This document shows, in pieces, positions 3,579 to 21,634 of a DNA stretch of 23,002 bases (position 1 is its first letter; every line of letters starts with the position of its first letter). The notes under the pieces are model-generated. The model did not search any database, had not been told where the DNA came from, and saw only the letters and a program-made list of their open reading frames with translations. This DNA is from a virus (Duplodnaviria > Heunggongvirae > Uroviricota > Caudoviricetes): the IMG/VR virus record IMGVR_UViG_2740892209_000015; one strand, given 5' to 3'. The position numbers and the translations under genes are program-made.

Positions 3579-3597
3579 TGGTGCGATAATAGGAACA
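3579..3597. repeat. Degenerate direct repeat of the thrW 3' end (att core, junction between the two elements)
   Basis: AATGGTGCGATAATAGGA here versus AATGGTGCCGATAATAGGA at 21557-21575 (one indel). Lies 15 nt after the int stop. Confidence 0.7.
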
Positions 3598-3656
3598 ATA
3601 CACATAGGCGATAAGCTTTGTTTTTGTTGCCTTTTTTATTGTTCATTTTTTATAGA

Positions 3657-3681
3657 TACCCCCAAAAGTACCCCCATATCT
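3657..3681. repeat. TACCCCCA-type direct repeat, candidate integrase arm-type site (copy 1)
   Basis: ATACCCCCAAAAGTACCCCCAT; near-identical copy at 21425-21450 in the same orientation, each just inside one island boundary. Confidence 0.5.
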
Positions 3682-3795
3682 TTTTCCGCCCCTGAAATTT
3701 GGTTGTTATTCATACAGCATATCAGGCGGTAACGCTCTCCCTTTAACCCACTTATTGTATGATAGTGCTATCCCACAATAAGGAATCAGCCAGCC

Positions 3796-4155
3796 ATGAG
3801 AATGACCAGCCGTAAAAAAGAGATACTCAGTTATTTTGAGCCGGATAACCTAGAATGGGTGACAGGTGAGATTGGTGCGCCGCCGTTCGATGTGTCGGGC
3901 GTGGCCTACCTGCTTCATGGCATGGTGTCGTTCGATAAGCGCCACCAGCTCGAATCAACCCGGCGCACACTGGAAAGCATGGTTGCTGGTGGACTGCTTG
4001 AGCGGGTGACAGTGTATGAATCGCGTCAGGTACGGCGCGGCGGTGAGACTAACGCAACGGTCGTGCGCTACGGTTTACCCGGTCACTGCGCTGTTATGCG
4101 CGATACTGGCGGCGCTGATAACGCAATATCAGGCGAATACATGCGGGTCAGTTAA
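3796..4155 (+). CDS. Hypothetical protein (119 aa)
   Basis: ORF with AAGGAA upstream of the ATG. Convergent 8-nt overlap with the downstream minus-strand gene. No family recognised. Confidence 0.45.
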   Translation: MRMTSRKKEILSYFEPDNLEWVTGEIGAPPFDVSGVAYLLHGMVSFDKRHQLESTRRTLESMVAGGLLERVTVYESRQVRRGGETNATVVRYGLPGHCAVMRDTGGADNAISGEYMRVS

Positions 4156-4690
4156 GAGCCTGCAATCTGTCGTTAATGTTGTTCAGGTCGTAAACCCGGC
4201 GTTCAATATCCAGCATCAGGAAATCGTGGATCTCGGCCTGTTCAGGATTATCAGACTCTCTGGCCTGTAAGAGCAATTCATTGTAACCATGCAAACCACC
4301 CGAATTTTCCGCCGGGGTAGTGCCCTTCCCGCGCAAACAGCTAACAGGCTGGATACTGGTATCATGTGTTTGCTTCTCCAGCACAACAAGGCAATCCCAC
4401 CAGTCGCCAAAGTCATACGTGTAAACCAGCTTGTCACCCTCATTCTGGAGCGCCGCCCATAGTGGCGTGATTGCCGCGTTACCCATGCTTTCATCCTCAC
4501 CCCATACGCGATACTCGCTACCTGGATCACCTTTACGCCCTTTCTCGAACATATACAGGTGTTCGTCATTCCAGCCAAAAGCTAACTGGATCACGGCATG
4601 AAGTTTACTAAAGGGGATTTGCTCTGGAACCAGCACACGCCGCCATATTGGTGGTTTGCTGTCTCGGATGGTTATCTTTATCTGGTACAT
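4148..4690 (-). CDS. PRiA4b ORF-3-like family protein (180 aa)
   Basis: N-terminal signature IKITIRDSKPPIWRRVLVP...LHAVIQLAFGWNDEHLYMF matches the pRiA4b ORF-3-like domain as I recall it. Confidence 0.65.
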   Translation of the reverse strand: MYQIKITIRDSKPPIWRRVLVPEQIPFSKLHAVIQLAFGWNDEHLYMFEKGRKGDPGSEYRVWGEDESMGNAAITPLWAALQNEGDKLVYTYDFGDWWDCLVVLEKQTHDTSIQPVSCLRGKGTTPAENSGGLHGYNELLLQARESDNPEQAEIHDFLMLDIERRVYDLNNINDRLQALN

Positions 4691-4733
4691 GCGTCGTGAA
4701 CCAATAGTGTACGTTTAGGTGGGTATTTTTCTG

Positions 4734-5168
4734 CTACTGACCAGGATAGAGCTGATGTGCCGGGTCAAGCCAGACAATATGGAATACATTACCGATGAAA
4801 AATCCATGTATGCGACCATATTCATTGCGCGATATGGCAAATTGATAAGGTGTATAACTCTGAAACTGTTCATTCAAATGCTGAAATCCCTTAGGTTCAG
4901 ATGTAGTTTGCCAATCAATCGGATGTGACTTCAACGAACCACCGCGATCGGTGGTGAACTCTCGTTCAGTCATAGTGGAAAGGTCTTTGAGGCGGTCTAA
5001 CACCTTGCAAAAATAAACAGGATTCTGAGCGCTGAAAGTAAATTTCTCATGCGCCGCATCGATATACCGAAAAGAAAAGTTGATGGTCGTTATGCCTGAA
5101 CCTGTTCCCCCAGGCACTATTTTTGTTTGCGAGGGTGCAATCTTCGACGCCCTGATTCTTTTCGCCAT
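4734..5168 (-). CDS. Hypothetical protein (144 aa), candidate toxin partner of the upstream Panacea-domain protein
   Basis: Start codon 2 nt after the stop of the upstream gene (tight coupling). No family recognised. Confidence 0.55.
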   Translation of the reverse strand: MAKRIRASKIAPSQTKIVPGGTGSGITTINFSFRYIDAAHEKFTFSAQNPVYFCKVLDRLKDLSTMTEREFTTDRGGSLKSHPIDWQTTSEPKGFQHLNEQFQSYTPYQFAISRNEYGRIHGFFIGNVFHIVWLDPAHQLYPGQ

Positions 5169-5170
5169 AT

Positions 5171-5626
5171 TTAGGAAGCCATCGAACGATAAAACTCAGC
5201 CGTTACACTTTTATCAATAACATTCTTGCACGGCGCATCTGATGGAACCCCTTCACGGGCCTCCAGCCACGGCTTTTCTTGGTGCGTCATCTGCTCCAGC
5301 TCATAAGCTGTATAACCGCCAAATACCTCATAGATTTCCTTTAGATGCTTTGACACATTCGCAGGTAACTCAGGGCAGGCAATCTCTTCGTCTATTGAGC
5401 GCCATTTGTAATCTGCAAATCTGGTATACAAATCTCTGGCTACAGGGCCATGTACCCATGCTTCAAACTTGTCAGCAACCAGTTCTTCGCCATCATTCAG
5501 CGCCATGAACCAAGCATCAGCATAGAACACCATTTTTTGCAGTTTCAGCGGGGTCATAACATCCCCATGCTCTTGAGCAAAGCAAAGCAGGTAATCCGCT
5601 ACGCTGTTAAGGGTTGTAACTGCCAT
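5171..5626 (-). CDS. Panacea-domain (DUF4065, SocA-like) protein, putative antitoxin (151 aa from the internal start)
   Basis: KLQKMVFYADAWFMALN...FEAWVHGPV...LYTRF matches the Panacea/DUF4065 signature. AGGAG RBS 7-8 nt before the ATG at 5626; the longer ORF starting at 5857 has no RBS. Confidence 0.65.
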   Translation of the reverse strand: MAVTTLNSVADYLLCFAQEHGDVMTPLKLQKMVFYADAWFMALNDGEELVADKFEAWVHGPVARDLYTRFADYKWRSIDEEIACPELPANVSKHLKEIYEVFGGYTAYELEQMTHQEKPWLEAREGVPSDAPCKNVIDKSVTAEFYRSMAS

Positions 5627-5947
5627 TATCCAATCTCCTGCCGTATGTTTTCGTCTATAACTGTCCACTACCGTTAATAATCGCATATAACCACGGGTAT
5701 TGCCCATCGTAAAATGCCATTTAAAGATTCTGCGTGATGGCTCACCATCCACCGCGCAAGATACCCGGTGCGTTTGGCTGATAATCCGCAATTTGGTTGA
5801 AACCGTCCTGGAAACCTCAAGTTTGGAAACCAGCGACTTGCATCGTAGCTTTGCCATTCGGCGGTCATAGTTACTGCTATATCCCTTTATTGGCGAGACC
5901 TGCGAGAGGTTTTGTTGTTCGAATATATAAAGGTGAATAAAGGTAAT

Positions 5948-6133
5948 CTACCTGCGCGGCGCAGGCTTCTTCCACTGGTAGGCGGGTGATCGCATCATTT
6001 CGCGAAATTTGTCACGCCGGGCTATATTGGCATTAACTGAGCGTTCTATCTCCCGTTGATCTGCCGGGGTTAGCTGGTGGCCTTCGTGCTCCAGTTTGGC
6101 GGTGGTCAATAAAGCTATTTCGCGTGGTGTCAT
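5948..6133 (-). CDS. Hypothetical small protein (61 aa)
   Basis: AGAGGG RBS-like sequence upstream of the ATG; basic C-terminus. No family recognised. Confidence 0.4.
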   Translation of the reverse strand: MTPREIALLTTAKLEHEGHQLTPADQREIERSVNANIARRDKFREMMRSPAYQWKKPAPRR

Positions 6134-6429
6134 ACGTCATACCCTCTGGAAGGATGAAACACGCCCGGATTAAATTTCATTTTTCGCGGGTATAAAAAAC
6201 GATGGGGCGGGCAGTCCCGGATAGTCAGGGCTGTAGAGATTTGACTACCCCCTCCCCACTGGATTCAGGTTACTGCTATTCCGTTAAGCGCTGCTTACGG
6301 GGATAGCTGCGTTGTGATTTTGACCATTCAGGTCGCCGCTATTTCCTCACCGATTGGGTGCTACGCGCGCGCGTACTTGTCCCGAAATACCAGAAACCGC
6401 CAGCCAGAGGATGATTTCCCTCTGGTGGT

Positions 6430-6711
6430 CTACCTTTGCCTCTTGCCGCCATTTAACCGGAAGGCGTTACCGTTCGGTTGCGCTATCCCCATGCGGTGTT
6501 GCGTTTCGGTAACAGCTTTATGCAGGTCGCCAAATTCCTCAACCTTCACGGGCGGGCGCTTCACGTTCTCCAGACACGTTTCACGGCGGCGCTTTATCCA
6601 TTCCCGATCATCGTCCTCGCTGCATAACAGCATGACTTCCATCCATCGTGCGGCAGCTCTCCGGTATAGCCCTTTTGACTCCAGCTCTTCAGCTTTCCTG
6701 TCCCTTATCAT
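6430..6711 (-). CDS. PerC-family transcriptional activator-like protein (93 aa)
   Basis: AEELESKGLYRRAAARWMEVM resembles the PerC family core. GAGAGG RBS and a TATAAT hexamer lie immediately upstream, abutting the left iteron cluster. Confidence 0.6.
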   Translation of the reverse strand: MIRDRKAEELESKGLYRRAAARWMEVMLLCSEDDDREWIKRRRETCLENVKRPPVKVEEFGDLHKAVTETQHRMGIAQPNGNAFRLNGGKRQR

Positions 6712-6740
6712 TTCTGCCTCTCAGATTATATAGATAAGCA

Positions 6741-6875
6741 AAAAGGTGTTGGTTCAGTTGGTTCAGTTGGTTCAATTTGTAAAGATCGTTGTTTTTATTA
6801 TGTTTTTTCTAAAATATTGAACCAACATCAACTCATTTTGAACCAACACAGCCCAGCTCTGAACCAACAACACAG
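6741..6875. repeat. Iteron cluster L (origin-like): 3 tandem GTTGGTTCA, AT-rich spacer, 3 inverted TGAACCAAC
   Basis: 6741-6785 is a perfect 45-bp inverted repeat of 12982-13026. Tandem 9-mers at 6748-6774; inverted copies at about 6818, 6839 and 6860; AT-rich core 6786-6816. Confidence 0.85.
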
Positions 6876-6970
6876 CGATAGCTTTGTGATTGGCCCGTTA
6901 TTTTCTGGCTGATATTTGATCGTATAACAGTGTTATACAGTGATATACTGTATGGATATTACTCACTGAT

Positions 6971-7426
6971 ATGGTCTTTGCAATGAGCAAATCTAATCTG
7001 GTCGCGTTCCGCATCCCATCTGAATTGCAGGATGAGTTTAATCGGTCTGTTCTCGCTTCTGGAGGGGATAAAACCTCCTGGCTTGTTGATGCGATTCGCA
7101 TGAAGCTGGGACAGCCGGAAAAGTCTATTGATTCACGAATGCTTGGGCTGGTGGAGCGCATGGAAAAAGCTGCTGCGTCGCTTATTGCCGGAAAGCCGAA
7201 CATCCCACCAAAGCCATATAACGAAACGGCAGTTATAAAGATCATTGCCGATACCATCCGACAGGGATTTGATAATGGGCGTGTGATAGCTGAACGGATC
7301 AATGAAGCAGGCTATCAAACAAAAGCTGGTAAAGCGTGGGATAAAGATATTTACAGCGCGTGGAAGCGTCAGGGAAGCAATGCTGAAAAGTTAAAAGCGG
7401 TGATTGATTGTAAGGTCAGCGTATAA
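6971..7426 (+). CDS. Ribbon-helix-helix (Arc/CopG-like) DNA-binding protein with a C-terminal recombinase-like HTH region (147-151 aa)
   Basis: N-terminal SKSNLVAFRIPSELQDEF is an RHH beta-strand/helix signature. C-terminal VIAERINEAGYQTKAGKAWDKDIYSAWKR resembles the DNA-binding motif of serine-recombinase 'recombinase' domains. Start is ambiguous (6971 or 6983). Confidence 0.6.
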   Translation: MVFAMSKSNLVAFRIPSELQDEFNRSVLASGGDKTSWLVDAIRMKLGQPEKSIDSRMLGLVERMEKAAASLIAGKPNIPPKPYNETAVIKIIADTIRQGFDNGRVIAERINEAGYQTKAGKAWDKDIYSAWKRQGSNAEKLKAVIDCKVSV

Positions 7427-7505
7427 ACATGAGTGCCCATTGGAAAGCTGCTTGGGCCAATACCTTTATACACCAGCAGGTGGTGACGATAGGTGAGGAT
7501 CAGGA

Positions 7506-7727
7506 ATGAAAGGCAGAACGCCACACATTGAACATCAAGCCAACCACTTCTCGGATGTTCGCAATGAGATGATTGCCATTCGCGGTGATATGCACGGCTT
7601 GGAGCGTCGAATTATTGATAAGATTGATGAAAATAGAGATAAGGCCAGTGAAAATCAAAAGTGGATCATCGGCCTGTTGATTTTATCAATTCTTATCCCG
7701 CTACTTATCGCATTGGTCACAAAATGA
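7506..7727 (+). CDS. Small membrane protein (73 aa), coiled-coil plus C-terminal TM helix, XhlA-like topology
   Basis: GGTGAGGA RBS. C-terminal WIIGLLILSILIPLLIALV hydrophobic helix after a charged helical region. Confidence 0.55.
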   Translation: MKGRTPHIEHQANHFSDVRNEMIAIRGDMHGLERRIIDKIDENRDKASENQKWIIGLLILSILIPLLIALVTK

Positions 7728-8251
7728 ATATCCAATGTGTATGCTGTCGATGCTACGCGCGCGTACTTGTCGCAAAATATCAGGCAAAGGCCAGATTCAG
7801 AATGTCGTGATAACCACCAGCACAACATGAGATGTCATGTAACGCGATTTATCACGTCAGATACATGTGATTGGTGTACCCGCATAAAACATTGTCATAG
7901 CGCGTCCTGTGCGCATATACGCCGATAATCAACACATCACCACCACTCTGTCTCATGTAGAGAACAGTTTTATGGTATCCCCCCGCCATCGTGTGCATAC
8001 TGGTCGGACGTAGTTGCAAAATTTTTTGCAACTGATACCCCTCGCACGCGTACTTGTCTCGAAATTGGTGTTTTGCTGTGGCAGTGATATCAGAAAAATC
8101 TTCCTGTTTCACATAAAGCGGATATGTGCGCACTGTAACGGCCCCATCAACGGGGATCGGATTTGAAATCCCGACCCAAGCTATGTACCAAATGCCATGT
8201 CTTGGATATATGATGATTGCCATTCTAAACAACGCTAAAGGGAGGGTTGGT

Positions 8252-8650
8252 GTGAATCAATTGAAGCGATTGGTTGTCTCCGGTTTATTATTTGCTTCTT
8301 TTGGAGCGAACGCTGAATGCTGGATTATTGGTGATCTGAAAGGACAAGAAGCCTCAAGTTCAGATGGGTATAACTATAAGTTATCATCTATACCAGATAC
8401 CTTTCATTTGGTAATAAGTAAAGAGAAGGCGGATCTTATCTTGGCAAAAGATGGTATAGGTGGAGGTATTGATTATTACCCGCTATCTCCGAATGCCATG
8501 ATGGGAAGAAGCTATCGAGATGGTCAACTGACGCTTGTCACATGGGCAATCTCAAATGACGGAAAAGTGATCCATACACGAACAATTAGTCGATCTGATA
8601 TAGGCTCATTTACAGGCTCATTTGTCGGCAATGTTAAAGGCAAGTGTTAA
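8252..8650 (+). CDS. Secreted/periplasmic protein with N-terminal signal peptide (132 aa, GTG start)
   Basis: AGGGAGGG RBS 5 nt before GTG at 8252. N-terminus KRLVVSGLLFASFGANA followed by a polar mature region. AT-rich. Convergent with the 701-aa gene. Confidence 0.55.
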   Translation: MNQLKRLVVSGLLFASFGANAECWIIGDLKGQEASSSDGYNYKLSSIPDTFHLVISKEKADLILAKDGIGGGIDYYPLSPNAMMGRSYRDGQLTLVTWAISNDGKVIHTRTISRSDIGSFTGSFVGNVKGKC

Positions 8651-8711
8651 TGTTCATAACTATTTGAAAAAATACTAATTACTATTATAACCAACCATCC
8701 ATGGCCATCTG

Positions 8712-10817
8712 TTATTGAGCTTCCTTTTGCGATGCTTGTGCTGCTGTGGTCAGTGATTGTGTGACCGTACTGATCGCTCTGTCATATGCTGTGCTACCTT
8801 TTGGCGTATTTGCCAGACGTAACAAGGCATTTCGTATAACAGGGCTTTCGTATGCCTTCGCTGCTCCGCCTACGACACCAGCAGCAGGAACAACAAACGC
8901 AGCCGTTTTTAGCATCCCCGCTAATACTGCTGCGTTTATGATGCCACCACCAACTAACAATCCATAAAGCTGCTGACCATTTAAGTTTTGAACGTTCGCT
9001 TTTGCCGCGTGTCTTGTATCGTTGAGGTATTTAATAACGCCGTCCAGTTCCTTTCCATGTATGCCTTTAAAGAAAGTTGCTGATTGCTTCCTGTTCCGGT
9101 GTAACGCATTAATAAACTTCTCAACACTGATATTTCCAGACGGATCAGTCGCCTTATCTACAGCATTCTGAACTATGGCTGCTCGTGCGTTTTGCCTACC
9201 ATTGTCATCCAGAAGCCTGTAAAGCTGAGAACGTTCTGATGGGCTTTGGCTAAAAACAAGTTTTGTTACATCCTCAGGCGTGGCCTTGCCGCTGGCTATT
9301 GCCTTTTGAACGCGCGTTCTTCCCATCATGTCATTGAATTTAGACCATGAGCGATCAACCCTTGCCATATTAATAGCTTCGTCTGCTCCAAGATTTTTGG
9401 CTACGGCTTTTTTCATATCCGCCGTATATGCCTTGTAGATAATATCGCTGGCTTTCTGGAGCGTATCTTTATCAACAGTGTCAGATGACGCCATAAATCG
9501 CTTTCGAAGATCGGTTCTGTTTTCCCTCGCCAGACGCAGGTCATTTGGTCCGCTGGTGATATCGTCTTTAAATTGCTGCAAGACTTTTACCGCGGCTCTA
9601 TCCTGAGATTTGCCCGGGCGGCTTAACACGGCAATCTGATTGTCGATAGCTTTTACCGTGTTTGAGAGATCGACAGGGGTATCCCCCATAGCGTCAATTA
9701 TGCGGTTATATCGCTTTCCTGCTGCCTCAATGAATTTTTGTTGCCCTTTAGTCGCAGATTCATAAAGCTGTTTATCAGAAATGCCACCCAGACCATCGCT
9801 AAATGTTCTGACTAAATTTTCTCGTGCTTGTTGTTGATTCAGCCGATTCTTACCGGTTCCAAAAAAAGGAACTCTTTCGCCTAATGTCTGAGCCTGACTC
9901 TGCATAAAGGTTTTATCTTTCAGCATGTCACTGGTCATTAACGGCAGATTTCTTTCCGATGCAAAGTCGACAGCAGCCTTTGCTTCAGGCGACATATCAC
10001 CACGAACAGCCCTCGAAACCGCACTCGCTGTATTTTCCAGCCCCTTACCAATACCACCAATGCCAGCAGAAATTACCGTTTGTAACGGATCAATATCTTC
10101 TCCACCAGCGAGGCTGGTGGCTCCCTGTAGTGCTAAATCTGTAGCTGCTGATTTCCCTATGGCCCCCAGCACCGTTCCGGCCCTGCCCGCTGGTGTAAAC
10201 GCCAGCGCATTAGCCAGAAACGATGCCACGTCTTGCGGCGATAAACCCGGCTTGTTCAGAGCATAATCACCGGATGGCAGGGAAACGATAGTGTTACCCT
10301 TCTCATCCTGCCTTAATTTCGCTCCCATGCTCTGAAGAATCTTTTCCTGAGATGCGTCAGAGCCGAAAAGTTGAGACCATCGAGCTTTTAGAGCATCCAT
10401 GCTGAGTGAGGTTAACTCTGGGGCAAGGTCGACATTTTGCAGTCTCTCCATCTCTGGAGTCATTCGGCTTTCGCCTGTTATAGCATCGCGCATCGCAGCC
10501 CCAAGACTGGCTCCCTGTTCTGCTGAACGCTCAAGCCCCTCTCTTTGCTGAGTAGCTAACTTTGCATACCCTGACGCAATAGAATTATCAGATGATGTAT
10601 GTTGAATATTTTGAGTTGCTGATTGGGATCGGTCTATTTCATTCGTTGATGGTAGTGGATAGGCAGCATAAAAAGCCTGCTTAGCCTGCTCTACACTTTC
10701 TCCGGCTTGCGGGGCAACGACTTCATTGAAGTATTGCTCCTGAGCCTGCGCTTTTTGTTCTGGTGCTAACGCCTGATACTGTGGAGAGGCGATAACATCT
10801 TTCCATGCTTTAGCCAT
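8712..10817 (-). CDS. Large uncharacterised protein (701 aa); A/Q/K-rich, predicted helical, C-terminal hydrophobic hairpin
   Basis: Long ORF with GGGGTGA RBS, start overlapping the upstream stop (TAATG). Two adjacent hydrophobic stretches near the C-terminus (LYGLLVGGGIINAAVLAGML / AAFVVPAAGVVGGAA). No domain recognised. Confidence 0.8.
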   Translation of the reverse strand: MAKAWKDVIASPQYQALAPEQKAQAQEQYFNEVVAPQAGESVEQAKQAFYAAYPLPSTNEIDRSQSATQNIQHTSSDNSIASGYAKLATQQREGLERSAEQGASLGAAMRDAITGESRMTPEMERLQNVDLAPELTSLSMDALKARWSQLFGSDASQEKILQSMGAKLRQDEKGNTIVSLPSGDYALNKPGLSPQDVASFLANALAFTPAGRAGTVLGAIGKSAATDLALQGATSLAGGEDIDPLQTVISAGIGGIGKGLENTASAVSRAVRGDMSPEAKAAVDFASERNLPLMTSDMLKDKTFMQSQAQTLGERVPFFGTGKNRLNQQQARENLVRTFSDGLGGISDKQLYESATKGQQKFIEAAGKRYNRIIDAMGDTPVDLSNTVKAIDNQIAVLSRPGKSQDRAAVKVLQQFKDDITSGPNDLRLARENRTDLRKRFMASSDTVDKDTLQKASDIIYKAYTADMKKAVAKNLGADEAINMARVDRSWSKFNDMMGRTRVQKAIASGKATPEDVTKLVFSQSPSERSQLYRLLDDNGRQNARAAIVQNAVDKATDPSGNISVEKFINALHRNRKQSATFFKGIHGKELDGVIKYLNDTRHAAKANVQNLNGQQLYGLLVGGGIINAAVLAGMLKTAAFVVPAAGVVGGAAKAYESPVIRNALLRLANTPKGSTAYDRAISTVTQSLTTAAQASQKEAQ

Positions 10818-12283: not shown

Positions 12284-12287
12284 AAAT

Positions 12288-12461
12288 TTACCCACGTCCA
12301 GTTAAAGTGTAAGCCAGCGCCTTATCCATTAATCCCCGAGCAATTTCGTGGATCGTTGGCGCAACTCCTACCTCTGATTTTTTACGCTGCTCCTCCTGAA
12401 TTTTCTTTATCGCTTCCATTTGCTTCTCACTTATCAATACCGGCTTTACTGAAATAGCCAT
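12288..12461 (-). CDS. Small protein (57 aa), possible RHH-like DNA-binding protein; first gene of the operon
   Basis: Below the ORF-track size cutoff; found manually. AAGGGGG RBS 5 nt upstream of the ATG. Sequence MAISVKPVLISEKQMEAIKKIQEEQRKKSEVGVAPTIHEIARGLMDKALAYTLTGRG. Confidence 0.5.
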   Translation of the reverse strand: MAISVKPVLISEKQMEAIKKIQEEQRKKSEVGVAPTIHEIARGLMDKALAYTLTGRG

Positions 12462-12475
12462 AACGCCCCCTTAGA

Positions 12476-12590: not shown

Positions 12591-12904
12591 GTTCTGTGTG
12601 TCAGGTTTTGACAGGTTTTTTATGGACTCTAAAAACTATATTTATGGTGTCGCATTACTCTTCACGGCAGGCGCTTTTCAGTTCTGCCCTTGCTTCTGGC
12701 TCCATTGGTAATTTGATTCGCGATCAGCTATGCGGATGGTTTGCTGAACAGGCATAACAACTTCTCAGGGGCTGTTTTCTGAACTACGAAAATTTCGTAT
12801 TGCTCACTTTCAAAACGTCACGCCCTTGTACACAGGATTTTACGAAAGTCTCGTAAAACACTCTCTGATGCCAGCCAGGTGTTGTGCGCATCAATTCAGT
12901 CACA

Positions 12905-13026
12905 TTGTGTTGGTTCAAAATACCGTGTTGTTGGTTCAGTGTTGGTTCAATAAAAAGAATAAAATCCTTATAAAACAATACTCTTTACAAATTGAACCAA
13001 CTGAACCAACTGAACCAACACCTTTT
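12905..13026. repeat. Iteron cluster R (origin-like), inverted copy of cluster L; 22 nt downstream of the primase stop
   Basis: 12982-13026 is a perfect 45-bp inverted repeat of 6741-6785. Additional GTTGGTTCA copies at about 12908, 12930 and 12941; AT-rich core between. Confidence 0.85.
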
Positions 13027-13044
13027 CTACGCACATGAATAAGC

Positions 13045-15801
13045 TCATTCTTCAGATGAGTTGTAATCTCCTGGCTGGTAATTGAGTACATAAACGTTTA
13101 TTTGTCGTCCCTGAATACGTGGTGATTTTCTTTGGTATCCACGACCGCTGTTTGGTGGGGTTAGCATCCCGGCTTTTTTCAACACTTCAGCAAACTGTTT
13201 TGCGTTGAAACCACATGCGATCTCCTTTTCAAATGTGGCCGGGAATGTGTAGAAAATCATTGGACTTTCGTCATGTTCTCCACGCTGACGGTATCCGGCT
13301 AAATCTTTGATGGGCAAATCTGCCGGGCTGTATGGAAATGGTGCAAAACGGCTAAGCCCATAGGCATTAAGAAATGCCTCCGTTTGTTCAATAATCTGCT
13401 GATGCTCTTTGTTACCTGTGCCGAACTCGCGCAACCATGCGTTATAGCTGTGCTGTATCGCATCACGGCATGTCTGAGCATCCCAGCCTGTTACAACCTC
13501 GCCTAACAACAATGCGGCCTCCAGAATGGCAAATCGCGCGGCTACACGGTGAACCTGCTCACCATAATCGGATGGGATCAGGCTTCTCCATCTGCTTTCG
13601 CAATCACGAACAGTTTTAATAGCCTGTTGCTGGTGGTCTGCCAGCCATTTAATCCACTCACGCCCGGCTGCGCCATGGTGATGCTGGTAAGCGTCTTTCA
13701 GTGCGTCTGCGTGCTGTTTTCCGTTCTGGTAATCGTGAAAGCGTACTGCTTTACTCAACGGAATATTCAGCAGTCGCACCAGTTGCCCGGCTTTGGTTTT
13801 TCGCCCGGAAGTAGCGATAAATGTTTCTAAATCCATTTCTCCGGTGCTGATTGCCACTGTACGCCAGCGTTTTAGATCCCGGTTTCCACCATCTTTAGCG
13901 CCTTGCAGTTTCCCTACACCGTTAAATAACGCATAGGCAGACTGTGAAACGCTGACAGGATCAGCGCCCTGACCAACTTCATCAAGCGGCATTAATCCGT
14001 CATTGTGGGCGGCGGCCTCATTTGCCAGCCCCAGCGCGGTTCCGTACCACGTCAGCCGCAGTAAATCAGGGTTGCCGTATAAGCTGCTCGCCACGTTTGC
14101 CGTGGTGGTCTTACCCGCGCTCGACTGCTCATAGAAATGAATGCCGAACCCGTCAGCGCCCACCAGCCCAATCAATGGCGCTGCCAGTGCTGCGCCGATC
14201 CCGGTCATCATTGAATAGTTACCAAAGGCCAGACGCGCCACGTTATCACGCCAGCTTTTCGCGCTCCCTGAGACGGTATATCCGGCTGCGGCTGAGCTTC
14301 TCCCGCTGAACAGCACAGGATTTTCAGGTGTTCCGATGATTTCCCCATCAGGCATGATGTACGCTCCGCATTGCCAGCCAGTGGCATGAGCAACACGCCA
14401 CAATTCACGAGAGCCACTGCGTTGTAGCCAGTCTGCCAGTATTGCTCTGAGGCTGCTTTTGGTCGTGACATTTACCCCACCAGCTTTAAGTGTGCGCCAT
14501 CCTTCACGTTCACCAATATCAGCCAGTGGAATGGCAGCGGTTGTCGGCGTTTCAGAACCAAACGACAGCCAGCGAAGAATGAGATACTGGTCTTTATCGT
14601 CTCTGCCAGTACCGATAACGCTTAACGGAGAACATAACCAGCTTTCGTTATTGATGATTTCTCCACTCTGGCTGTCAGCTCTCGGAGATACCCAATAAAT
14701 ACCATCCTCGCGGCTTTCTATTCTTGGTTTCAGTGGGTCGGTATCCATAACCTTAAAATCGCTTCCCTCAATGGTCTGTGGCTCCTGTTTCACGCCATTA
14801 CCCTGTGGTTGGTACATTGACTTATTGAACGCTTCTGTGGCGCATTTAATGCCGTGTTTTTGGTGGTAATCATTCCAGTCTGCTTTGTGATCTGTCGGGG
14901 GTAATGCCACCCATCCAGAAACAGATAAAGCTGCTTTTTCTGCTGCTATTCTCCCCGTGTTTTGTCTTCCTTCGCTGTGGTCGTTATCCGCAGCAATGAT
15001 GATTTGTGCTGAAGGAAATTTATCCCGCAGTACCTGGGCGACATATAACAGGTTCCCGGCATCAATCGCCGCCACTGTCAGCGCCTCTGGACGAATTAAA
15101 TGGACAGATAATGCCGTTGCCAGCCCTTCTGCGATTAAGATGCTCTGTGTTGTTTCTGGTGCGTTTATGGCGTGATATGCCCCTCGCTTTGCTGAACCTG
15201 TCAGGAGTCTTTTTTCACCATGTGAGGTAATAGTCTGTGCTGCTGTGACTGCGCCGGATTTATCCACCAGCGCCAGCAACAGAGATCCATCGGGCAACAC
15301 GGGGAATGTAAAATCACCTACCCCTTTCGCAACCAGATAATCAGATTTGCCGTTTACAGCCTTTCTGCGCATGTCATCAAACTGACGGGAAAACGTATCC
15401 CGTCTTTGTTGTTCGTCCTTCTCTGCCCTTTTCAGGCGCTCCTGTTCGCGTCGCTGGCGCTCGGTTTCCAGTTGTTCCCGTTTCTGGCTGGTGGCTTCTG
15501 GTGTTTCCGTTGTCCGGTAATCAATACCCAGAACATCAGCGGCAAGAAGCGCCGCCTCTGTTGTGTCGCAGTTATTTACGCGTTTAATTAAATCCAGCCC
15601 ATCACCAGCGCCGCACTGATTACAGATGAAGCTACCGCGCCCGTTGTCATCGAACCGGAATCGATCTTTGCCCCCACATGCAGGGCAGGGAGCATGACGG
15701 CGCGGAGAGTCAGGGACATTTATGTTCAGGCAGCCCAGCACATGAGGCCAGTTGTTTTCAGACGCACTGATAACCTGACGGATAAGATCAATGTTTCGCA
15801 T
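13045..15801 (-). CDS. Replicative primase / replication initiation protein (918 aa): N-terminal zinc ribbon, TOPRIM-like domain, C-terminal NTPase-like region; P4 alpha / PICI Pri-Rep analogue
   Basis: CPACGG...CNQCG zinc ribbon. TOPRIM-like acidic motifs (LIAEGLATA; IIAADNDHSEG). ACGGGGG RBS. Iteron cluster lies immediately 3' of the gene. Confidence 0.8.
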   Translation of the reverse strand: MRNIDLIRQVISASENNWPHVLGCLNINVPDSPRRHAPCPACGGKDRFRFDDNGRGSFICNQCGAGDGLDLIKRVNNCDTTEAALLAADVLGIDYRTTETPEATSQKREQLETERQRREQERLKRAEKDEQQRRDTFSRQFDDMRRKAVNGKSDYLVAKGVGDFTFPVLPDGSLLLALVDKSGAVTAAQTITSHGEKRLLTGSAKRGAYHAINAPETTQSILIAEGLATALSVHLIRPEALTVAAIDAGNLLYVAQVLRDKFPSAQIIIAADNDHSEGRQNTGRIAAEKAALSVSGWVALPPTDHKADWNDYHQKHGIKCATEAFNKSMYQPQGNGVKQEPQTIEGSDFKVMDTDPLKPRIESREDGIYWVSPRADSQSGEIINNESWLCSPLSVIGTGRDDKDQYLILRWLSFGSETPTTAAIPLADIGEREGWRTLKAGGVNVTTKSSLRAILADWLQRSGSRELWRVAHATGWQCGAYIMPDGEIIGTPENPVLFSGRSSAAAGYTVSGSAKSWRDNVARLAFGNYSMMTGIGAALAAPLIGLVGADGFGIHFYEQSSAGKTTTANVASSLYGNPDLLRLTWYGTALGLANEAAAHNDGLMPLDEVGQGADPVSVSQSAYALFNGVGKLQGAKDGGNRDLKRWRTVAISTGEMDLETFIATSGRKTKAGQLVRLLNIPLSKAVRFHDYQNGKQHADALKDAYQHHHGAAGREWIKWLADHQQQAIKTVRDCESRWRSLIPSDYGEQVHRVAARFAILEAALLLGEVVTGWDAQTCRDAIQHSYNAWLREFGTGNKEHQQIIEQTEAFLNAYGLSRFAPFPYSPADLPIKDLAGYRQRGEHDESPMIFYTFPATFEKEIACGFNAKQFAEVLKKAGMLTPPNSGRGYQRKSPRIQGRQINVYVLNYQPGDYNSSEE

Positions 15802-15813
15802 TCTGGCCCCCGT

Positions 15814-16890: not shown

Positions 16891-17081
16891 TTTTCACCCC
16901 CAAGAATTACCAGCTCGGCACGGGCATCGTTAACCAAAGATGAGCACGCTTTAATCGCATCCACGACATCAGCAGCGTCCATTTCTTCAGCCGAAAGACT
17001 GACAGCAACCAGGACAGCCGCTGCTTGCTCGATTAATTGAAGTGCGGACGTAAGGCGAGGGGTATTAATTGAGTTATTCAT
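16887..17081 (-). CDS. Hypothetical small protein (64 aa from the internal ATG)
   Basis: ATG at 17081 with ACGGGGG RBS, overlapping the upstream stop by 8 nt. Confidence 0.5.
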   Translation of the reverse strand: MNNSINTPRLTSALQLIEQAAAVLVAVSLSAEEMDAADVVDAIKACSSLVNDARAELVILGGEK

Positions 17082-17292
17082 TGGTTGCCCCCGTTTTGCA
17101 TGGCATTTGTCCACCTTCCAGCAGGAAATGAACGTCACGAACGGCGAGATCCAATATCGCGAGTAACGCCTTCAGTCTTTCGTCTCGTGAGGGAGAGTTG
17201 CTCACCAGAATGTCGTTAATCACTTCTGTCAGTGTGATGATCTGGCTTGTGCGTTCGAGGGGATCCATATGCACATCGTAGGTTTTAATCAT
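17074..17292 (-). CDS. Hypothetical small protein (72 aa)
   Basis: ATG at 17292 preceded by GGAGGTGG, overlapping the stop of the 64-aa ORF (ATGATTAA). In frame with the long 342-aa track ORF but most likely an independent gene. Confidence 0.5.
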   Translation of the reverse strand: MIKTYDVHMDPLERTSQIITLTEVINDILVSNSPSRDERLKALLAILDLAVRDVHFLLEGGQMPCKTGATNE

Positions 17293-17479
17293 GTGCCACC
17301 TCCATGCGGATACGACCAGCAAAAAAGCAGACGTGATCGCGCACCAGAGAACGGCGAGCATCGCGTTCAGACTCGGCAGCAATATGATGAATTTTGGCGG
17401 TAATTGTCGGGCAATCGCGGCGAACTGCGGCGATAATCCAGATAAATTGCGGTTTTGGGGTAGGGGTAGTAGCCAGCAT
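17285..17479 (-). CDS. Hypothetical small protein (64 aa)
   Basis: Strong AAGGAGG RBS 7 nt upstream of the ATG at 17479. Different frame from the long track ORF that covers it. Confidence 0.5.
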   Translation of the reverse strand: MLATTPTPKPQFIWIIAAVRRDCPTITAKIHHIAAESERDARRSLVRDHVCFFAGRIRMEVAHD

Positions 17480-17641
17480 GTGGCAGCCTCCTTGATTGAT
17501 GGTTTATAGCCACCGCCCAAGAGACCAATCTTGCTGGCGGTGGACTGTACGGAGTTGGCCTTACTGGCAATCAAGGAAACCAGCCTACCCGAAGGTAGCC
17601 CCATACAGCCCACCATTGATAAGGTGTGCGTGTGCGCCGAT

Positions 17642-17664
17642 ACAAAAAAAGACGCTGGCGCGTC
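17642..17664 (-). terminator. Candidate intrinsic terminator (minus strand) inside the long track ORF
   Basis: On the minus strand: hairpin GACGC-GCCA-GCGTC followed by a U7 run. Confidence 0.45.
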
Positions 17665-18102
17665 ATGTATCGCCTCGATTGTCAGCGGGAGGCCAATCCC
17701 GGCACCCGTTTTATGAGGTGCCTTATAACCATAAACCGTGTTGCCGCATAACGGCAAGCTCTTTTTTATGGACTCCGAAAACTCAGTATTGGAAGCACCA
17801 GATGCACAGTACATCGCGCTCATTTCGTTAACGTCACGCACGTGGACGAATGTTTTTGTGGAGTCACTACACGAGCGGAAGACATCATCTACGACCAGAA
17901 ATTTTCTGGCGCAGCCGCTGACCTTCTCAATGCTAATATCATCGCCCGAGATTTCTGGTATGGTTAAGGCATCCGTTCCGACCACCAGCAAATGATAAAC
18001 TTTGCTTGCATCTGCTGTATTAATGCCTGACTTTGCCGTCATATTGCTGGATTTTGGCGACATACCTGCCAGTGAAAATGTCTTCTTCTGGACGGTTAGC
18101 AT
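17642..18102 (-). CDS. Hypothetical protein, N-terminal ~150 codons of the long track ORF; 3' end unresolved
   Basis: ATG at 18102 with GGAGG RBS, 3 nt after the stop of the upstream gene. The first ~150 aa look protein-like, then composition degenerates. No in-frame stop before 17074. Confidence 0.35.
17741..17767 (+). terminator. Candidate intrinsic terminator (plus strand), implying a short antisense transcript
   Basis: Hairpin TTGCCG-CATAA-CGGCAA followed by GCTC and a T6 run on the plus strand. Confidence 0.4.
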
Positions 18103-18278
18103 TTGTTAACCTCCGCGAACTCCTTCATGAAACGTGCCAGCGGTTGTACGCATGGCGATTGATACCCGTCGCGATAAAACGTCACTCGGTTGTGAGACAC
18201 GCTTTCGACAGTAACGAGTGCTCCGTGGGCATCTTTGTAGCGTTTTTGTGGTTGTGGTGTTCCTGTTGGCTTAGACAT
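18096..18278 (-). CDS. Hypothetical small protein (60 aa from the internal ATG)
   Basis: ATG at 18278 preceded by GGAGGTGG, overlapping the stop of the AntA-like gene by 8 nt. Confidence 0.5.
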   Translation of the reverse strand: MSKPTGTPQPQKRYKDAHGALVTVESVSHNRVTFYRDGYQSPCVQPLARFMKEFAEVNKC

Positions 18279-19104
18279 TGACCACCTCCAGACGCTTGGC
18301 GAGCCAGCGTTGCGACAGGCGGGTGAGTTCTCCTTTGCGCTGCTCATATTCCATGCCCATATCAATTAACGTGATATTGGTGCTTTCGAGATATGAGAGG
18401 TGCTCAAGCTGTTCTGCGTTCATATGGTCGCGAGGTTCGCCAGAATAGCCATTTATCCGCGCCCACTGCTTAGCAGTTAGCCCACCAAGAACGATACGAG
18501 AAATCATATTGCTCTCGTTTGTGTAGTGGTGTTGCTGCGTCGTTTTCCCCTGCTCGGCACGGGCCATATTCAGCGCATCGCACATTGGCTTAAAGTTGTT
18601 TGCGGCACTAATACGGGCTTTTAGCTGGCGACGATAGCGGGCGGCGATTTCAGGCACGCTACGCTGTAATTCTTCCTCGCACTGGATGAAATAACGACGG
18701 ATAGCGCGACCCTGATCATTGCGTTCGATCATTGCCAGTTCTTTCGCCATTCCGACACTTAACAGATAGTCTTTGCCGGGTCTGCCAGACTGCTTAATCT
18801 TGCTGTAAGCCGCGCCATTCGGGCTTTTCCCCAAATTTGGGGAAATTGTTTTATGGACTGAGTAATCGTGCCCAATGGTGAAGTCATATTCAGAGATGCG
18901 ATCAGTGATCCATGTAGAGAAGTCTTTTCCCACGCCCAACGCTTTGTGTAACGCTTTTGCGCTAACAATATTGGTTTCACGCCCACCGATATGACCAGGA
19001 ATAACCGGGACAATTGCGGCAAATTCATTACCGTTAATTGTGCCCAGAGAGGCGTTCAGATGAGGGGCAGCCTCAGAAATTAATCTGCTTTTTTCGATGT
19101 TCAT
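18271..19104 (-). CDS. Phage antirepressor-like protein, AntA/KilAC-type domains (277 aa)
   Basis: SAKALHKALGVGKDFSTWITDRI...DY resembles the AntA N-terminal antirepressor domain. GGAG RBS. Confidence 0.6.
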   Translation of the reverse strand: MNIEKSRLISEAAPHLNASLGTINGNEFAAIVPVIPGHIGGRETNIVSAKALHKALGVGKDFSTWITDRISEYDFTIGHDYSVHKTISPNLGKSPNGAAYSKIKQSGRPGKDYLLSVGMAKELAMIERNDQGRAIRRYFIQCEEELQRSVPEIAARYRRQLKARISAANNFKPMCDALNMARAEQGKTTQQHHYTNESNMISRIVLGGLTAKQWARINGYSGEPRDHMNAEQLEHLSYLESTNITLIDMGMEYEQRKGELTRLSQRWLAKRLEVVNV

Positions 19105-19116
19105 TTTCAGTCTCCG

Positions 19117-19548
19117 TTAGGCGGCGTTAAACGCGTCCGGGTAGAGTTTCAGAATGTCGGCAATTTCCTGCTGAGAAAGTCCGTTGTGATCATTTATGTT
19201 CGCAAGATGGTTAATATGAGTGATCACTTTCAGAACATCACCACGGCAGGAGAAACGGTAGCGAAGGTGTGTTCCGATACCATCAGGATTCTTTTCGTCG
19301 ATACGCTCCAGAGTGATTCCAAGCTGGCGTTCTAACTCTGTTGCATAGTTACGACCAGAAGACAGACGGCAGTAGCGAAGAATGTCATTTTCTGTCCATC
19401 CCTCTATACCAGTACGCAGCATATAGACTCTGGCACGATGCTTTTTCGGTGTGCGCTTTGGTGCTTGAAGGGATTTTGTAAGGGGCGTAACATCAGATAC
19501 ACGAATATCTGAATTAGCCGCCTGTAATGGGCGGTTTTTCTTTTCCAT
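19117..19548 (-). CDS. Hypothetical protein (143 aa), possibly DNA-binding
   Basis: GAGGTGG RBS; start overlaps the alpA stop (TGATG). Basic N-terminus. Confidence 0.5.
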   Translation of the reverse strand: MEKKNRPLQAANSDIRVSDVTPLTKSLQAPKRTPKKHRARVYMLRTGIEGWTENDILRYCRLSSGRNYATELERQLGITLERIDEKNPDGIGTHLRYRFSCRGDVLKVITHINHLANINDHNGLSQQEIADILKLYPDAFNAA

Positions 19549-19751
19549 CAGGCCACCTCGTCTCTAGATTCTAATATACACTTCTCAATCCATTCATCTA
19601 TTTCAGACTCAACAAAAGCAATTGCCCGACTTCCAATTTTTACCTGTTTAGGGAACCTCCCCTGACTAATAAGACGATAAATCCATGCTTTGCTATAACC
19701 AGTTCGCCTTTGAACTTCAGAGAGACGAATTAATGAATTGTAATTAGCCAT
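19548..19751 (-). CDS. alpA: AlpA/Vis-family small HTH regulator (67 aa)
   Basis: MANYNSLIRLSEVQRRTGYSKAWIYRLISQGRFPKQVKIGSRAIAFVESEIDEWI is the AlpA-family pattern. Next to int, as in P4-like and CP4-57-like islands. Confidence 0.8.
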   Translation of the reverse strand: MANYNSLIRLSEVQRRTGYSKAWIYRLISQGRFPKQVKIGSRAIAFVESEIDEWIEKCILESRDEVA

Positions 19752-20178
19752 TTATTAATATCCTGTACTAATGACGCAATAACCCCCTCCTGCAACGAAT
19801 GGCGAGAGTTTTATTTGCGTCAAATGTCGAATACGCCAAAGACCACAATATGAAAAACATATTGCGGTCTTTTATAAAAGATAGTCAGATTGTTTTGGTT
19901 TGTTTGCTCCACAAGGGTAGAGCTACCCTGCATTTCGGCAGGATCACGCTATTAGGCGTGACATCCAGTAGTTTTAAAGAACAATTGCGCTTTGTCAGCG
20001 CCAAAGCCTGTTAAAGAACATTCCGCTTTTCAGCAGCGTAGAAGGCTCAATACACCTTCGTTTATAAAAGAGCGATTGCCCTTCTCCAGGGCTAACTGTT
20101 AAATAGCAATCCTCTGTGAGTTTTTATCAATCTACTCCCCTATACTTTAGTAAACCTCTGTATACTTGTCCAGTTGTT

Positions 20179-21393
20179 TCATGCGTGTTTTTCAAACACC
20201 ATATGCACCACATTTCCGCCATGCTCGAGAGAATCCATATAGTCGGCATACCATTGAAGCATCTCCCGCCGTCCATCCAGATATTGCGCATGGTTGTATG
20301 TGCCACGAATTGAGTTCTTATCAACGTGAGCGAGCTGCGTTTCTATCCACGCGGTGTTATAGCCCTGCTCATGCAAAATCGTGCTCATAGTGTGTCGGAA
20401 CCCATGACCAGTTACACGTCCAGCGTAGCCAATGCGCTTAAACACTTGGTTTATGCTGGCCTCACTCATTGTTTTCCTTGGATCATTGCGCCCGGGAAAC
20501 ATAAGAGGGTAATTGCCTGTTATTTCTCTAATCTTCCCAATAAGCGAAAGAGCCTGCTCAGACAATGGCACAATATGAGGCCGCCGCATTTTCATACGTG
20601 AAGCGGGTATCTCCCATATAGCCTTGTTGAAATCAATTTCATCCCATGATGCGCCACGTAGTTCGCCAGTTCGCAAGCCGGTGATAATCAGTAGACGAGC
20701 CGCCATAACAACCAATGCGCTTCCTGAGTAACTGGACAATGCCTTGAAAAAATCAGGTAATTCTTTGGTCGTAAGGAAAGGGTAATGATTAGATTCATGG
20801 CCTTGCATCGCGCTAGTAAGGTCTGGTGCAGGGTTATACTCTGCGCGACCAGTGACTATTGCATAGCGGAAAACTTCCCCGCACCGCTGCCTCACTTTTT
20901 TGGCTTTTTCTGTCGCACCGCGCCCCTCGATGCGCCGCAGCACATTCAGAAGTTCAAGTGGTTTGATTTCGGCGATTGGTTTTTTGCCAATGTAAGGGAA
21001 CACATCTTTGTTGAAGGCTTCGAGGATGTCTGAAGCATAACCAGCAGACCATTTTTTTAATTTGCTGCTGTGCCACTCAAGGGCAATATCTTTGAAGGTG
21101 TTGTTTAACTGCGTTTCCCGGGCAATCTTTTCCTCTCGTTTCGCTTCCATCGGATCGATACCACCAGCGATACCTCTTTTCGCATCTTCACGTTTTGCCC
21201 GAGCATCGGCTAGAGTAACCTCAGGATACACACCTAGTGCCAATAGCTTCTCTTTACCAGCTACACGATATTTAAGTCGCCAGTATTTACCTCCATTAGG
21301 TTTTACCAAGAGATACAAACCGCCACCATCGGCCAGCTTGTAAGCCTTCTCTTTTGGCTTGGCTGTGTCTATTTGACGGGCATTGAGTTTCAC
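20179..21393 (-). CDS. int: P4-family tyrosine integrase (404 aa)
   Basis: N-terminal MKLNARQIDTAKPKEKAYKLADGGGLYLLV and C-terminal GHGFRHT...YNHAQYLD(G)RREMLQWYAD match the P4/IntS integrase family. Immediately adjacent to the tRNA. Confidence 0.9.
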   Translation of the reverse strand: MKLNARQIDTAKPKEKAYKLADGGGLYLLVKPNGGKYWRLKYRVAGKEKLLALGVYPEVTLADARAKREDAKRGIAGGIDPMEAKREEKIARETQLNNTFKDIALEWHSSKLKKWSAGYASDILEAFNKDVFPYIGKKPIAEIKPLELLNVLRRIEGRGATEKAKKVRQRCGEVFRYAIVTGRAEYNPAPDLTSAMQGHESNHYPFLTTKELPDFFKALSSYSGSALVVMAARLLIITGLRTGELRGASWDEIDFNKAIWEIPASRMKMRRPHIVPLSEQALSLIGKIREITGNYPLMFPGRNDPRKTMSEASINQVFKRIGYAGRVTGHGFRHTMSTILHEQGYNTAWIETQLAHVDKNSIRGTYNHAQYLDGRREMLQWYADYMDSLEHGGNVVHMVFEKHA

Positions 21394-21424
21394 TTGGGGG
21401 TACCTCCACTAAACCGAACAGCAA

Positions 21425-21450
21425 ATACCCCCATAAGTACCCCCATCTGA
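21425..21450. repeat. TACCCCCA-type direct repeat, candidate integrase arm-type site (copy 2)
   Basis: AATACCCCCATAAGTACCCCCAT, matching 3657-3681. GACTTTAGTAGAC also occurs twice nearby (21470-21482 and 21526-21538). Confidence 0.5.
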
Positions 21451-21558
21451 CCGTAGATTTTGAGGGACTTTAGTAGACGTCAAAAGACGAACGGGGCTTT
21501 AATACGCGGATTATAAGGGGTTTTGAAAGACTTTAGTAGACTTGGGGAGATGTTTGAA

Positions 21559-21634
21559 TGGTGCCGATAATAGGAGTCGAACCTACGACCTTCGCATTAC
21601 GAATGCGCTGCTCTACCAACTGAGCTATATCGGC
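21559..21634 (-). tRNA. thrW: tRNA-Thr (anticodon CGU)
   Basis: Reverse complement reads GCCGATATAGCTCAGTTGGTAGAGCAGCGCATTCGTAATGCGAAGGTCGTAGGTTCGACTCCTATTATCGGCACCA, 76 nt, with CGT in the anticodon loop and 3' CCA. Confidence 0.93.

Follow-up and report, generated by a model that had tools for sequence, protein, structure and literature searches.

An EcCIMP1-type island between thrW and a prophage with a P22-type integration module

The tRNA-Thr gene thrW is a busy integration site in Escherichia coli and Shigella, where serotype-converting phages, the vat island, CP4-6 and EcCIMP1 all insert. The last of these, a phage-inducible chromosomal island (PICI) of 19,963 bp described in E. coli MP1 (Pick, Stadel & Raivio 2025, PMC11773190), lies in thrW between proA and yagU and is flanked by TCCTATTATC, its boundaries having been established by Sanger sequencing. 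Excision and circularisation take place only with the P22-like phage Kapi1 and require Int and AlpA; Kapi1 also transduces the island, which confers superinfection immunity, the authors having found no known defence system (PMC11773190). One 46-bp core has been published for the phages SfI, SfII, SfIV, SfV, SfX and P22; in the published descriptions SfI, SfII, SfIV and SfV are contractile-tailed cos myoviruses, and SfX and Sf6 are podoviruses. Two further systems are relevant. In the GenBank record of P4 (NC_001609), the integrase arm repeats consist of an inverted copy over the int start and tandem pairs located 113 bp (int side) and 54 bp (far side) from the core. Helper-embedded PICIs (PMC10111431) interrupt a late gene of a prophage, whose function would return only after the satellite excises. 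Here we analysed the 23,002-nt virus record IMGVR_UViG_2740892209_000015 from IMG/VR (Caudoviricetes; its full length is referred to as the window), in which an 18.0-kb island related to EcCIMP1 is located between thrW and a prophage.

The components of this array, from the chromosomal flank inward, are as follows.

21749-23002, minus strand: proA, the chromosomal flank, adjoining thrW
21559-21634, minus strand: intact tRNA-Thr(CGT) gene thrW, the sole tRNA found in the window by ARAGORN
21559-21604, within thrW: 46-bp block of identity with SfIV and P22
21575-21597, within thrW: P22-type crossover core
21559-21575, within thrW: att repeat of the island
21426-21445, plus strand: two tandem arm-type sites TACCCCCA (starts 21426 and 21438), int side, 114 bp from the core
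21395-21402: inverted copy of TACCCCCA, 1 nt upstream of the GTG start of the island int (21391-21393)
20179-21393, minus strand: P4-type integrase of 404 aa, adjoining thrW (Pfam Arm-DNA-bind_3, Phage_int_M and Phage_integrase)
about 3585-21565: the island, between thrW and the prophage
3657-3676, plus strand: two tandem arm-type Int sites TACCCCCA with a 12-bp period (starts 3657 and 3669), on the island arm distal to int
3579-3594, minus strand: displaced thrW 3' fragment, the distal att site of the island and the only part of the 46-bp attR identity block of the prophage still beside its int
3562-3578: final 17 nt of the prophage int-side arm, TAACTTATTGATTTAAA, near-identical to sequence downstream of thrW in native chromosomes
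2401-3564, plus strand: P22-type tyrosine integrase of 387 aa (Pfam Phage_integrase; 100% identical to SfIV Int, 89.9% to P22 Int)

On the plus strand the window reads TGGTGCCGATAATAGGAGTCG from position 21559, i.e., the reverse complement of the tRNA 3' end. The displaced copy (TGGTGC-GATAATAGGA) matches the intact tRNA end (TGGTGCCGATAATAGGA, 21559-21575) at 16 of 17 nt, a single C being absent, and past it the two sequences part, with ACAAT at the left site versus GTCGA. It begins 14 nt past the stop codon of the P22-type integrase gene. A first-pass annotation of the window had described a 19-bp copy of the thrW end with one indel beside this gene; the copy and its indel are indeed there, whereas the ACA at 3595-3597 is non-matching island DNA. 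The 10-mer GATAATAGGA has exact matches in the window only at 3585 and 21566, compared to 0.03 expected by chance. Homology to SfIV ends at 3594, inside the attP core, and strains that carry the island only match the window starting from 3561/3562. The intact thrW adjoins the P4-type integrase gene, in agreement with the first-pass annotation.

It should be noted that the 17 nt at 3562-3578 have close counterparts in native chromosomes, at the CP4-6 boundary of K-12 (locus L006, about 3746-3766) and in the int-side arm of SfIV and P22. We considered these 17 nt, which are common to island-only strains, as a possible prophage remnant and rejected this interpretation, given that the sequence is close to that found natively downstream of thrW and is present in the SfIV int-side arm as well. 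The likeness in both host and phage arms indicates that phage-host identity runs past the published 46-bp core.

If the island is a separate element, each member of the array should be found without the other. The first-pass annotation had proposed a comparison with strains that lack one of the two elements, and we carried it out across 5426 complete E. coli genomes, with counts given at a coverage of at least 80% unless stated otherwise. As the island-free query we used the int end with its arm, cut off after 3578 and continued without a gap by thrW, starting at 21559. This junction (int, thrW, proA) is contiguous at 100% identity over 841 nt in STLEFF_47 and G12 and occurs in 1219 of the 5426 genomes; because it exists in nature, the island represents a precise insertion into a thrW gene already occupied by a prophage. 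Conversely, the island occurs without the prophage in F8, with a different left neighbour, and in isolate 38M23CPO015, with the native paoD/yagP flank. In the latter, the reverse order is also found, i.e., the thrW-side end of the island adjoins 46 nt of thrW, beyond which lies a gtr-side arm of the SfIV type (96.6% identity over 177 nt). E. coli MP1 contains a triple array consisting of a P22-type int fragment, the vat island, EcCIMP1 and thrW. Each element of the window can thus be removed in silico to yield a naturally existing junction, with the newest element adjoining the tRNA; the occurrence of island-only genomes and of the reverse order implies that the last element to arrive is the one closest to the tRNA. 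The int-alpA-antA module of the island was detected in 331 of the 5426 genomes and its ejection cassette in 298.

The island carries sites expected for a P4-type integrase on both arms. The motif TACCCCCA has five copies in the window, all at the island ends, compared to 0.35 expected. The 22-nt repeat units, ATACCCCCA(A/T)AAGTACCCCCAT, are 95% identical to each other and are held at the same positions in five related islands of other strains. The arm repeat of P4 has the sequence TGCCCCCA and is located at P4 positions 3915-3926, 3942-3965 and 4151-4174; the island sites at 3657-3676 are colinear with P4 4151-4174, and the int-side sites are laid out as those at 3915-3926 and 3942-3965. We rebuilt the island attP by joining 21380-21575 to 3595-3700 and aligned it to the P4 attP, which yielded a nearly gapless alignment with 52% identity. 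The offsets of the inverted site, the first tandem pair, the core and the second tandem pair are 15, 46/58, 179 and 258/270 in the island versus 11, 40/52, 173 and 249/261 in P4. Since they agree with the P4 arm repeats in number and orientation as well as in sequence and spacing to the core, the TACCCCCA repeats are identified as putative arm-type Int sites on both island arms. The same-orientation repeats inside both boundaries had been noticed and interpreted in this way in the first-pass annotation, without mention of the fifth, inverted copy. In the circular form of the island, the predicted junction reads ...GATGTTTGAATGGTGC(C)GATAATAGGAACAATACAC...

A similar att site was observed in E. 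coli ARS-C101 (locus L005, 8870-8980), where a different island with DUF2213 cargo has the same deletion-bearing att copy and TACCCCCAAAAGTACCCCCA arm repeats beside an SfIV-type int. The att/arm module is therefore common to islands of unrelated cargo.

The first-pass annotation had proposed that both elements used the same attB, which holds for the gene but not for the segment within it. The attP core annotated in the P22 record, ATGCGAAGGTCGTAGGTTCGACT, corresponds to window positions 21575-21597, wholly on the thrW side of the island. The island repeat (21559-21575) and the P22-type core (21575-21597) are consequently adjacent segments with one base in common. In all seven strains compared, the displaced copy reads (A)ATGGTGC-GATAATAGGA|ACAA, and the deletion-bearing form TGGTGC-GATAATAGGA|ACAAT is located beside four kinds of left flank, namely, the SfIV arm, native DNA, the vat-island arm and the F8 flank. 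Since the same deletion is found in every flanking context examined, the missing C is attributed to the island attP. Strand exchange would then take place within AATGGTGC, in the last 7-8 nt of the tRNA, and excision from this position would restore an intact thrW.

Combining these observations, we conclude that the array very probably arose by two successive site-specific integrations at thrW. In the first step, a lambdoid prophage with an SfIV/P22-type int-xis-attP module would have crossed over in mid-thrW, the 46-bp block regenerating the 3' half of the tRNA and placing int beside an intact tRNA gene. In the second step, an 18-kb EcCIMP1-type satellite would have entered the regenerated thrW, its P4-type integrase acting on a short core located at the very 3' terminus of the tRNA, and displacing the int-side arm of the prophage together with 16 nt of the tRNA by 18 kb. 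The predicted targets of the island Int are the TACCCCCA sites of either arm, together with a core located around AATGGTGC / GATAATAGGA. The opposite order, with the prophage integrating second into the 16-nt remnant, was rejected, the remnant being devoid of the annotated P22-type core. By analogy with EcCIMP1, mobilisation of the island is presumably helper-dependent. The tandem integration proposed in the first-pass annotation, with a P4-type-integrase island between thrW and a prophage carrying a P22-type int, is thus borne out by the island-free junction and the island-only genomes.

Another type of thrW array was observed in E. coli LR-06 (locus L004, 6579-7789), where the same SfIV-like int and arm precede 49 nt of thrW, beyond which lies a different site-specific integrase, as in an element cutting further 5' in the tRNA; this array carries an odd 112-nt 'tRNA-Ser' annotation.

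Several observations weigh against the two-step scenario. Among the 5426 genomes, none matches the whole window, and the best match covers 80%. The exact tandem junction is rare, with 6 genomes at a coverage of at least 80% and approximately 12 partial matches. The P22-type neighbours are decayed in three of the four tandem-junction strains inspected: the neighbour is interrupted by IS1 in CP131, reduced to 204 nt of int in P15-25, and represented by an int fragment in MP1; the ARS-C101 array retains at least 9 kb of prophage genes. The prophage of the window may likewise be a remnant. Furthermore, the common deletion could alternatively result from common descent of the islands, accompanied by replacement of the flanks by homologous recombination.

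Two successive integrations would have a consequence for the prophage. Because int and its arm are located 18 kb from the cut core and the 16-nt remnant lacks this core, the attR of the prophage is expected to be non-functional until the island excises. The prophage is probably unable to excise alone, i.e., it would be locked in by the island, and excision from the intact core would take the island along, producing a composite of approximately 57 kb versus the 39.8-kb SfIV genome. When the order of arrival is reversed, as in 38M23CPO015, the att sites of both elements remain contiguous. We tentatively suggest, as a possibility that we do not favour over its negation, that EcCIMP1-type islands act as 'prophage lockers' at thrW, the satellite splitting attR between the int-side arm and the 23-bp core so that the prophage exits only after the satellite or as a composite. 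If true, locking would explain both the scarcity of the tandem junction and the mostly decayed state of the P22-type prophages beside the islands. A P22-type int is the left neighbour in about 18 of 331 island-bearing genomes, versus 22% of all genomes having one at thrW, a difference that is not corrected for phylogeny and is suggestive only.

The identification of the island as a satellite follows from its near-identity to EcCIMP1, an island that has been shown in experiments to excise, to circularise and to be transduced. The published EcCIMP1 boundaries map onto window positions 3585-21565, and the island shares the thrW site beside proA and the TCCTATTATC direct repeats. Its backbone is 95-98.6% identical to the MP1 chromosome at the DNA level and 98-100% at the protein level, and includes int, alpA, the antirepressor gene, ash, the primase gene and PerC at high identity. 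A P22-like 'DNA transfer' cassette is present downstream of the primase gene, yet with divergent alleles and without gp14 and gp7. Judged from these similarities, the island is a variant of EcCIMP1, whose family was published in 2025. The island Int has an identity of 99.5% with EcCIMP1 Int, 49% with Kapi1 Int and, over its full length, 42% with P4 Int. The remaining island features, from the integrase gene leftward, are given below.

19548-19751, minus strand: AlpA regulator (Pfam), 100% identical to EcCIMP1 AlpA and 39% to P4 ORF88/Vis
within 18271-19751, minus strand, between the AlpA and AntA genes: 143-aa protein
18271-19104, minus strand: AntA antirepressor (Pfam), 97.8% identical to EcCIMP1 AntA
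left of the AntA gene: DUF4222 protein, followed leftward by the 'ash' ORF
17074-18102: 'ash' ORF of 342 aa (Pfam Phage_ASH)
17645-17721, minus strand: isrK RNA (Rfam, 65 bits, above the gathering score), inside the 'ash' ORF
17533-17620, minus strand: C4 antisense RNA (Rfam, 79.2 bits, above the gathering score), inside the 'ash' ORF
between the 'ash' ORF and the primase gene: several small ORFs
13045-15801, minus strand: primase-helicase with zinc ribbon, Toprim and DUF927 (Pfam), 99.6% identical to EcCIMP1 primase
12906-13026: repeat cluster 2, in the opposite orientation to cluster 1, beginning 19 nt past the primase stop codon
12288-12461, minus strand: 57-aa ORF heading the ejection-protein cassette
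10817-12295, minus strand: P22 gp20-like gene, full-length phrog match, 56% identity to P22 gp20 in the N-terminal part
8712-10817, minus strand: P22 gp16-like gene, full-length phrog match, 30% identity to P22 gp16
left of the gp16-like gene and right of PerC: three plus-strand ORFs with no assigned function
6741-6873: repeat cluster 1, with GTTGGTTCA three times in tandem and TGAACCAAC three times at intervals, also present in MP1, F8 and L009
6430-6711, minus strand: PerC (Pfam), 98.9% identical to EcCIMP1 PerC
4734-5857, minus strand: 144-aa protein and Panacea-domain protein (Pfam)
4148-4690, minus strand: PRiA4_ORF3 (Pfam), 95% identical to the EcCIMP1 protein
leftmost island gene, in the accessory region 3796-6711: 119-aa protein

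The ejection-protein cassette (8712-12461) is supported by a match to Pfam Inj_translocase (1.6e-84) and by full-length matches to phrog_917 and phrog_770. The gp20-like and gp16-like proteins are 82% and 99% identical, respectively, to those of the island variant L009, which also has gp14 and gp7 homologues. The ejection sets vary within this satellite family: some consist of gp14, gp7, gp20 and gp16 (fuller sets are found in L009, 12013-16849, and L011, 13480-18826), and the window has gp20 and gp16 only; a small ORF of 53-57 aa precedes gp20/gp16 in these cassettes. Between islands, the alleles range from 27% identity to none detectable, and compared to the helper Kapi1 the identities are 83% for gp14, 57% for gp7, 26% for gp20 and 24% for gp16. 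The island ejection proteins might enter helper virions or underlie the superinfection immunity of EcCIMP1. A literature search for satellites encoding ejection proteins surfaced nothing specific before EcCIMP1.

For the segment 4693-5945, in which the Panacea pair is located, the EcCIMP1 of MP1 offers no matching DNA. The 144-aa ORF and the Panacea (SocA-like antitoxin) protein form an apparent toxin-antitoxin-like pair that is also found in F8. A PADLOC scan of ten cargo and ejection proteins, this pair included, produced no matches.

The first-pass annotation had paired the satellite with the adjacent prophage as a candidate helper; the satellite half of this proposal holds by near-identity to EcCIMP1, and the helper half found no support. 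The prophage share of the window is 3.5 kb, with the gtr end and the structural genes beyond the window. Besides int, it contains the following early-left and excision genes.

1-435, minus strand: ECs1072-family gene (Pfam), early-left region
within 1-2524: gene for a DUF551 protein (Pfam), early-left region
953-1516, plus strand: YfdR-like HD hydrolase (Pfam), early-left region
2090-2524, plus strand: xis, with Xis 87% identical to P22 Xis

Window positions 1-3594 are 98.6% identical to the DNA of Shigella phage SfIV, with SfII and SfV also close. The label 'P22-like prophage' therefore fits the integration module, int and xis, as far as can be judged from the visible genes, and does not extend to the prophage as such, the visible part being closest to cos myoviruses. 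That this neighbour is the helper, and the array a functional satellite-helper pair, appears unlikely. In favour of this view, the structural genes of the prophage are beyond the window, lambdoid phages have mosaic genomes, a podovirus body is joined to this same thrW attP core in SfX, and a Kapi1-like prophage is present in only 2 of the 21 EcCIMP1 strains; against it, the visible 3.5 kb include the orf30-34 cluster that SfIV has in common with SfV, both of which are cos myoviruses, and the only virion-related genes of the island are P22-type gp20 and gp16, which a myovirus would not use. The demonstrated helper of EcCIMP1, Kapi1, is a Lederbergvirus integrated elsewhere, with an Int that is itself of the P4 type, and in the other tandem arrays inspected the neighbour is, as described above, mostly a decayed remnant.

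Even less probable is that the island is a classical P4-like satellite using a P2-like helper. The integrase and the attP architecture are indeed of the P4 type, and AlpA and the N-terminal 360 aa of the primase-helicase, which are 33% identical to P4 alpha, are related to their P4 counterparts. The C4 and isrK matches suggest a P4/P1-type RNA immunity region; since both RNAs lie inside an ORF annotated as an ash family protein, part of this ORF is possibly no real gene, and the MP1 counterpart of the region is annotated as a truncated ash gene and an Icd-like gene. In addition, the two repeat clusters are arranged as the P4 ori and crr. On the other hand, the DUF927 helicase part is not homologous to P4 alpha, no homologues of P4 sid, psu, delta, epsilon, cI, gop, beta and cII were found in the island (BLASTP against P4 proteins; Pfam), no island protein matched Pfam Psu or Ogr_Delta, and EcCIMP1, to which the island is nearly identical, depends on a P22-like podovirus for its mobilisation. 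In the sense of Moura de Sousa & Rocha, the island has the P4-type integrase, arm-type attP repeats and tRNA 3'-end core of P4-like elements and lacks sid, psu and delta. As predicted from its gene content, it is a P4-like integration, replication and immunity chassis and not a P4-like satellite in the strict sense.

The repeat clusters are approximately 130 bp each, with three tandem GTTGGTTCA and three spaced TGAACCAAC and with 55-nt arms that are 95% complementary; all 12 exact copies of TGAACCAAC in the window fall within them. They bracket the only part of the island that diverges strongly from EcCIMP1, i.e., the ejection-protein cassette and the three plus-strand ORFs. These clusters may be a primase-bound P4-style ori and crr, operators common to a pair of convergent operons, or sites at which cassettes are exchanged by recombination. 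Neither iterons nor an origin of replication are mentioned in the description of EcCIMP1 (PMC11773190). In a scan of 6000-13200, promoter-like sites were fewer than in shuffled sequence, and one terminator-like site was found (stem 12580-12565, minus strand), about 465 nt past the primase stop codon, between the primase gene and the ejection operon.

Finally, the view that the match at 3579-3597 is fortuitous, or that the 18 kb are cargo of the prophage and not a separate element, could appeal to the shortness and imperfection of the repeat, but is practically excluded by the restriction of GATAATAGGA to the two boundaries, by the separate occurrence of the 18-kb unit and the prophage junction, and by the coincidence of the boundaries with those of EcCIMP1.

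The array is real but largely ordinary, tandem arrays at tRNA genes being common, and current concepts are unchanged, although the annotation of a recently described satellite family is refined. New here are the homology of the island attP to that of P4, the adjacent rather than identical targets in thrW, the split attR, the C4 and isrK RNAs, and the repeat clusters that bracket a variable ejection-protein cassette. The window is a fully resolved case of neighbouring segments of a single tRNA gene being used by two integrase families, and all intermediate configurations exist in nature. The EcCIMP1 family is tied to P4 by attP architecture, RNA immunity and replication repeats, which is not part of the original description. 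These results also suggest an asymmetry: a satellite that arrives after the phage disables the phage excision site, whereas a phage that arrives after the satellite does not disable that of the satellite.

Compared to EcCIMP1, the island has the same gene order (int, alpA, antA, DUF4222, ash, primase, ejection cassette, PerC, PRiA4), and in MP1, too, the island is the thrW-proximal member of an array that ends in a P22-type int fragment. The differences lie in the cassette, where the gp20-like protein is 27% identical to that of MP1 and the gp16-like protein has no detectable similarity to its MP1 counterpart; in the absence of gp14, gp7 and the second AlpA gene, alpA_1; in the added Panacea pair; in the length (18.0 versus 19.96 kb); and in the neighbour, an intact-looking SfIV-type int-xis region versus the vat island. 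With the integration module of SfI, SfII, SfIV, SfV, SfX and P22, the prophage shares an int-side arm that is identical up to the tRNA end and a 46-bp core in common with thrW. In SfI and SfIV, int is followed by the int-side arm, then by the 46-bp core, which corresponds to the 3' part of thrW in reverse complement, and finally by the gtr-side arm and gtrA. A contiguous attR, with the int-side arm joined to the 46-bp core, is expected of such thrW prophages; in the window, just 16 nt of the 46-bp block adjoin int, and the remainder is located 18 kb away with thrW.

With P4, the island has in common the integrase family, an attP with five arm repeats and a tRNA 3'-end core, Vis/AlpA, the primase domain, a C4-like RNA and two repeat clusters, one of which lies directly after the primase gene, where crr sits relative to alpha in P4. 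It differs from P4 in being without sid, psu and delta, in targeting thrW and not leuX, in the DUF927 helicase part and the P22-type ejection genes, and in that its close relative EcCIMP1 has a podovirus as helper. The helper-embedded PICIs resemble this locus in that a satellite resides in a functional part of a prophage, here the attR of an SfIV-like prophage. Those PICIs, however, insert into a late gene that belongs to their own helper, whereas in the window the target is an attR reached via a shared tRNA gene, in a prophage that is probably not the helper.

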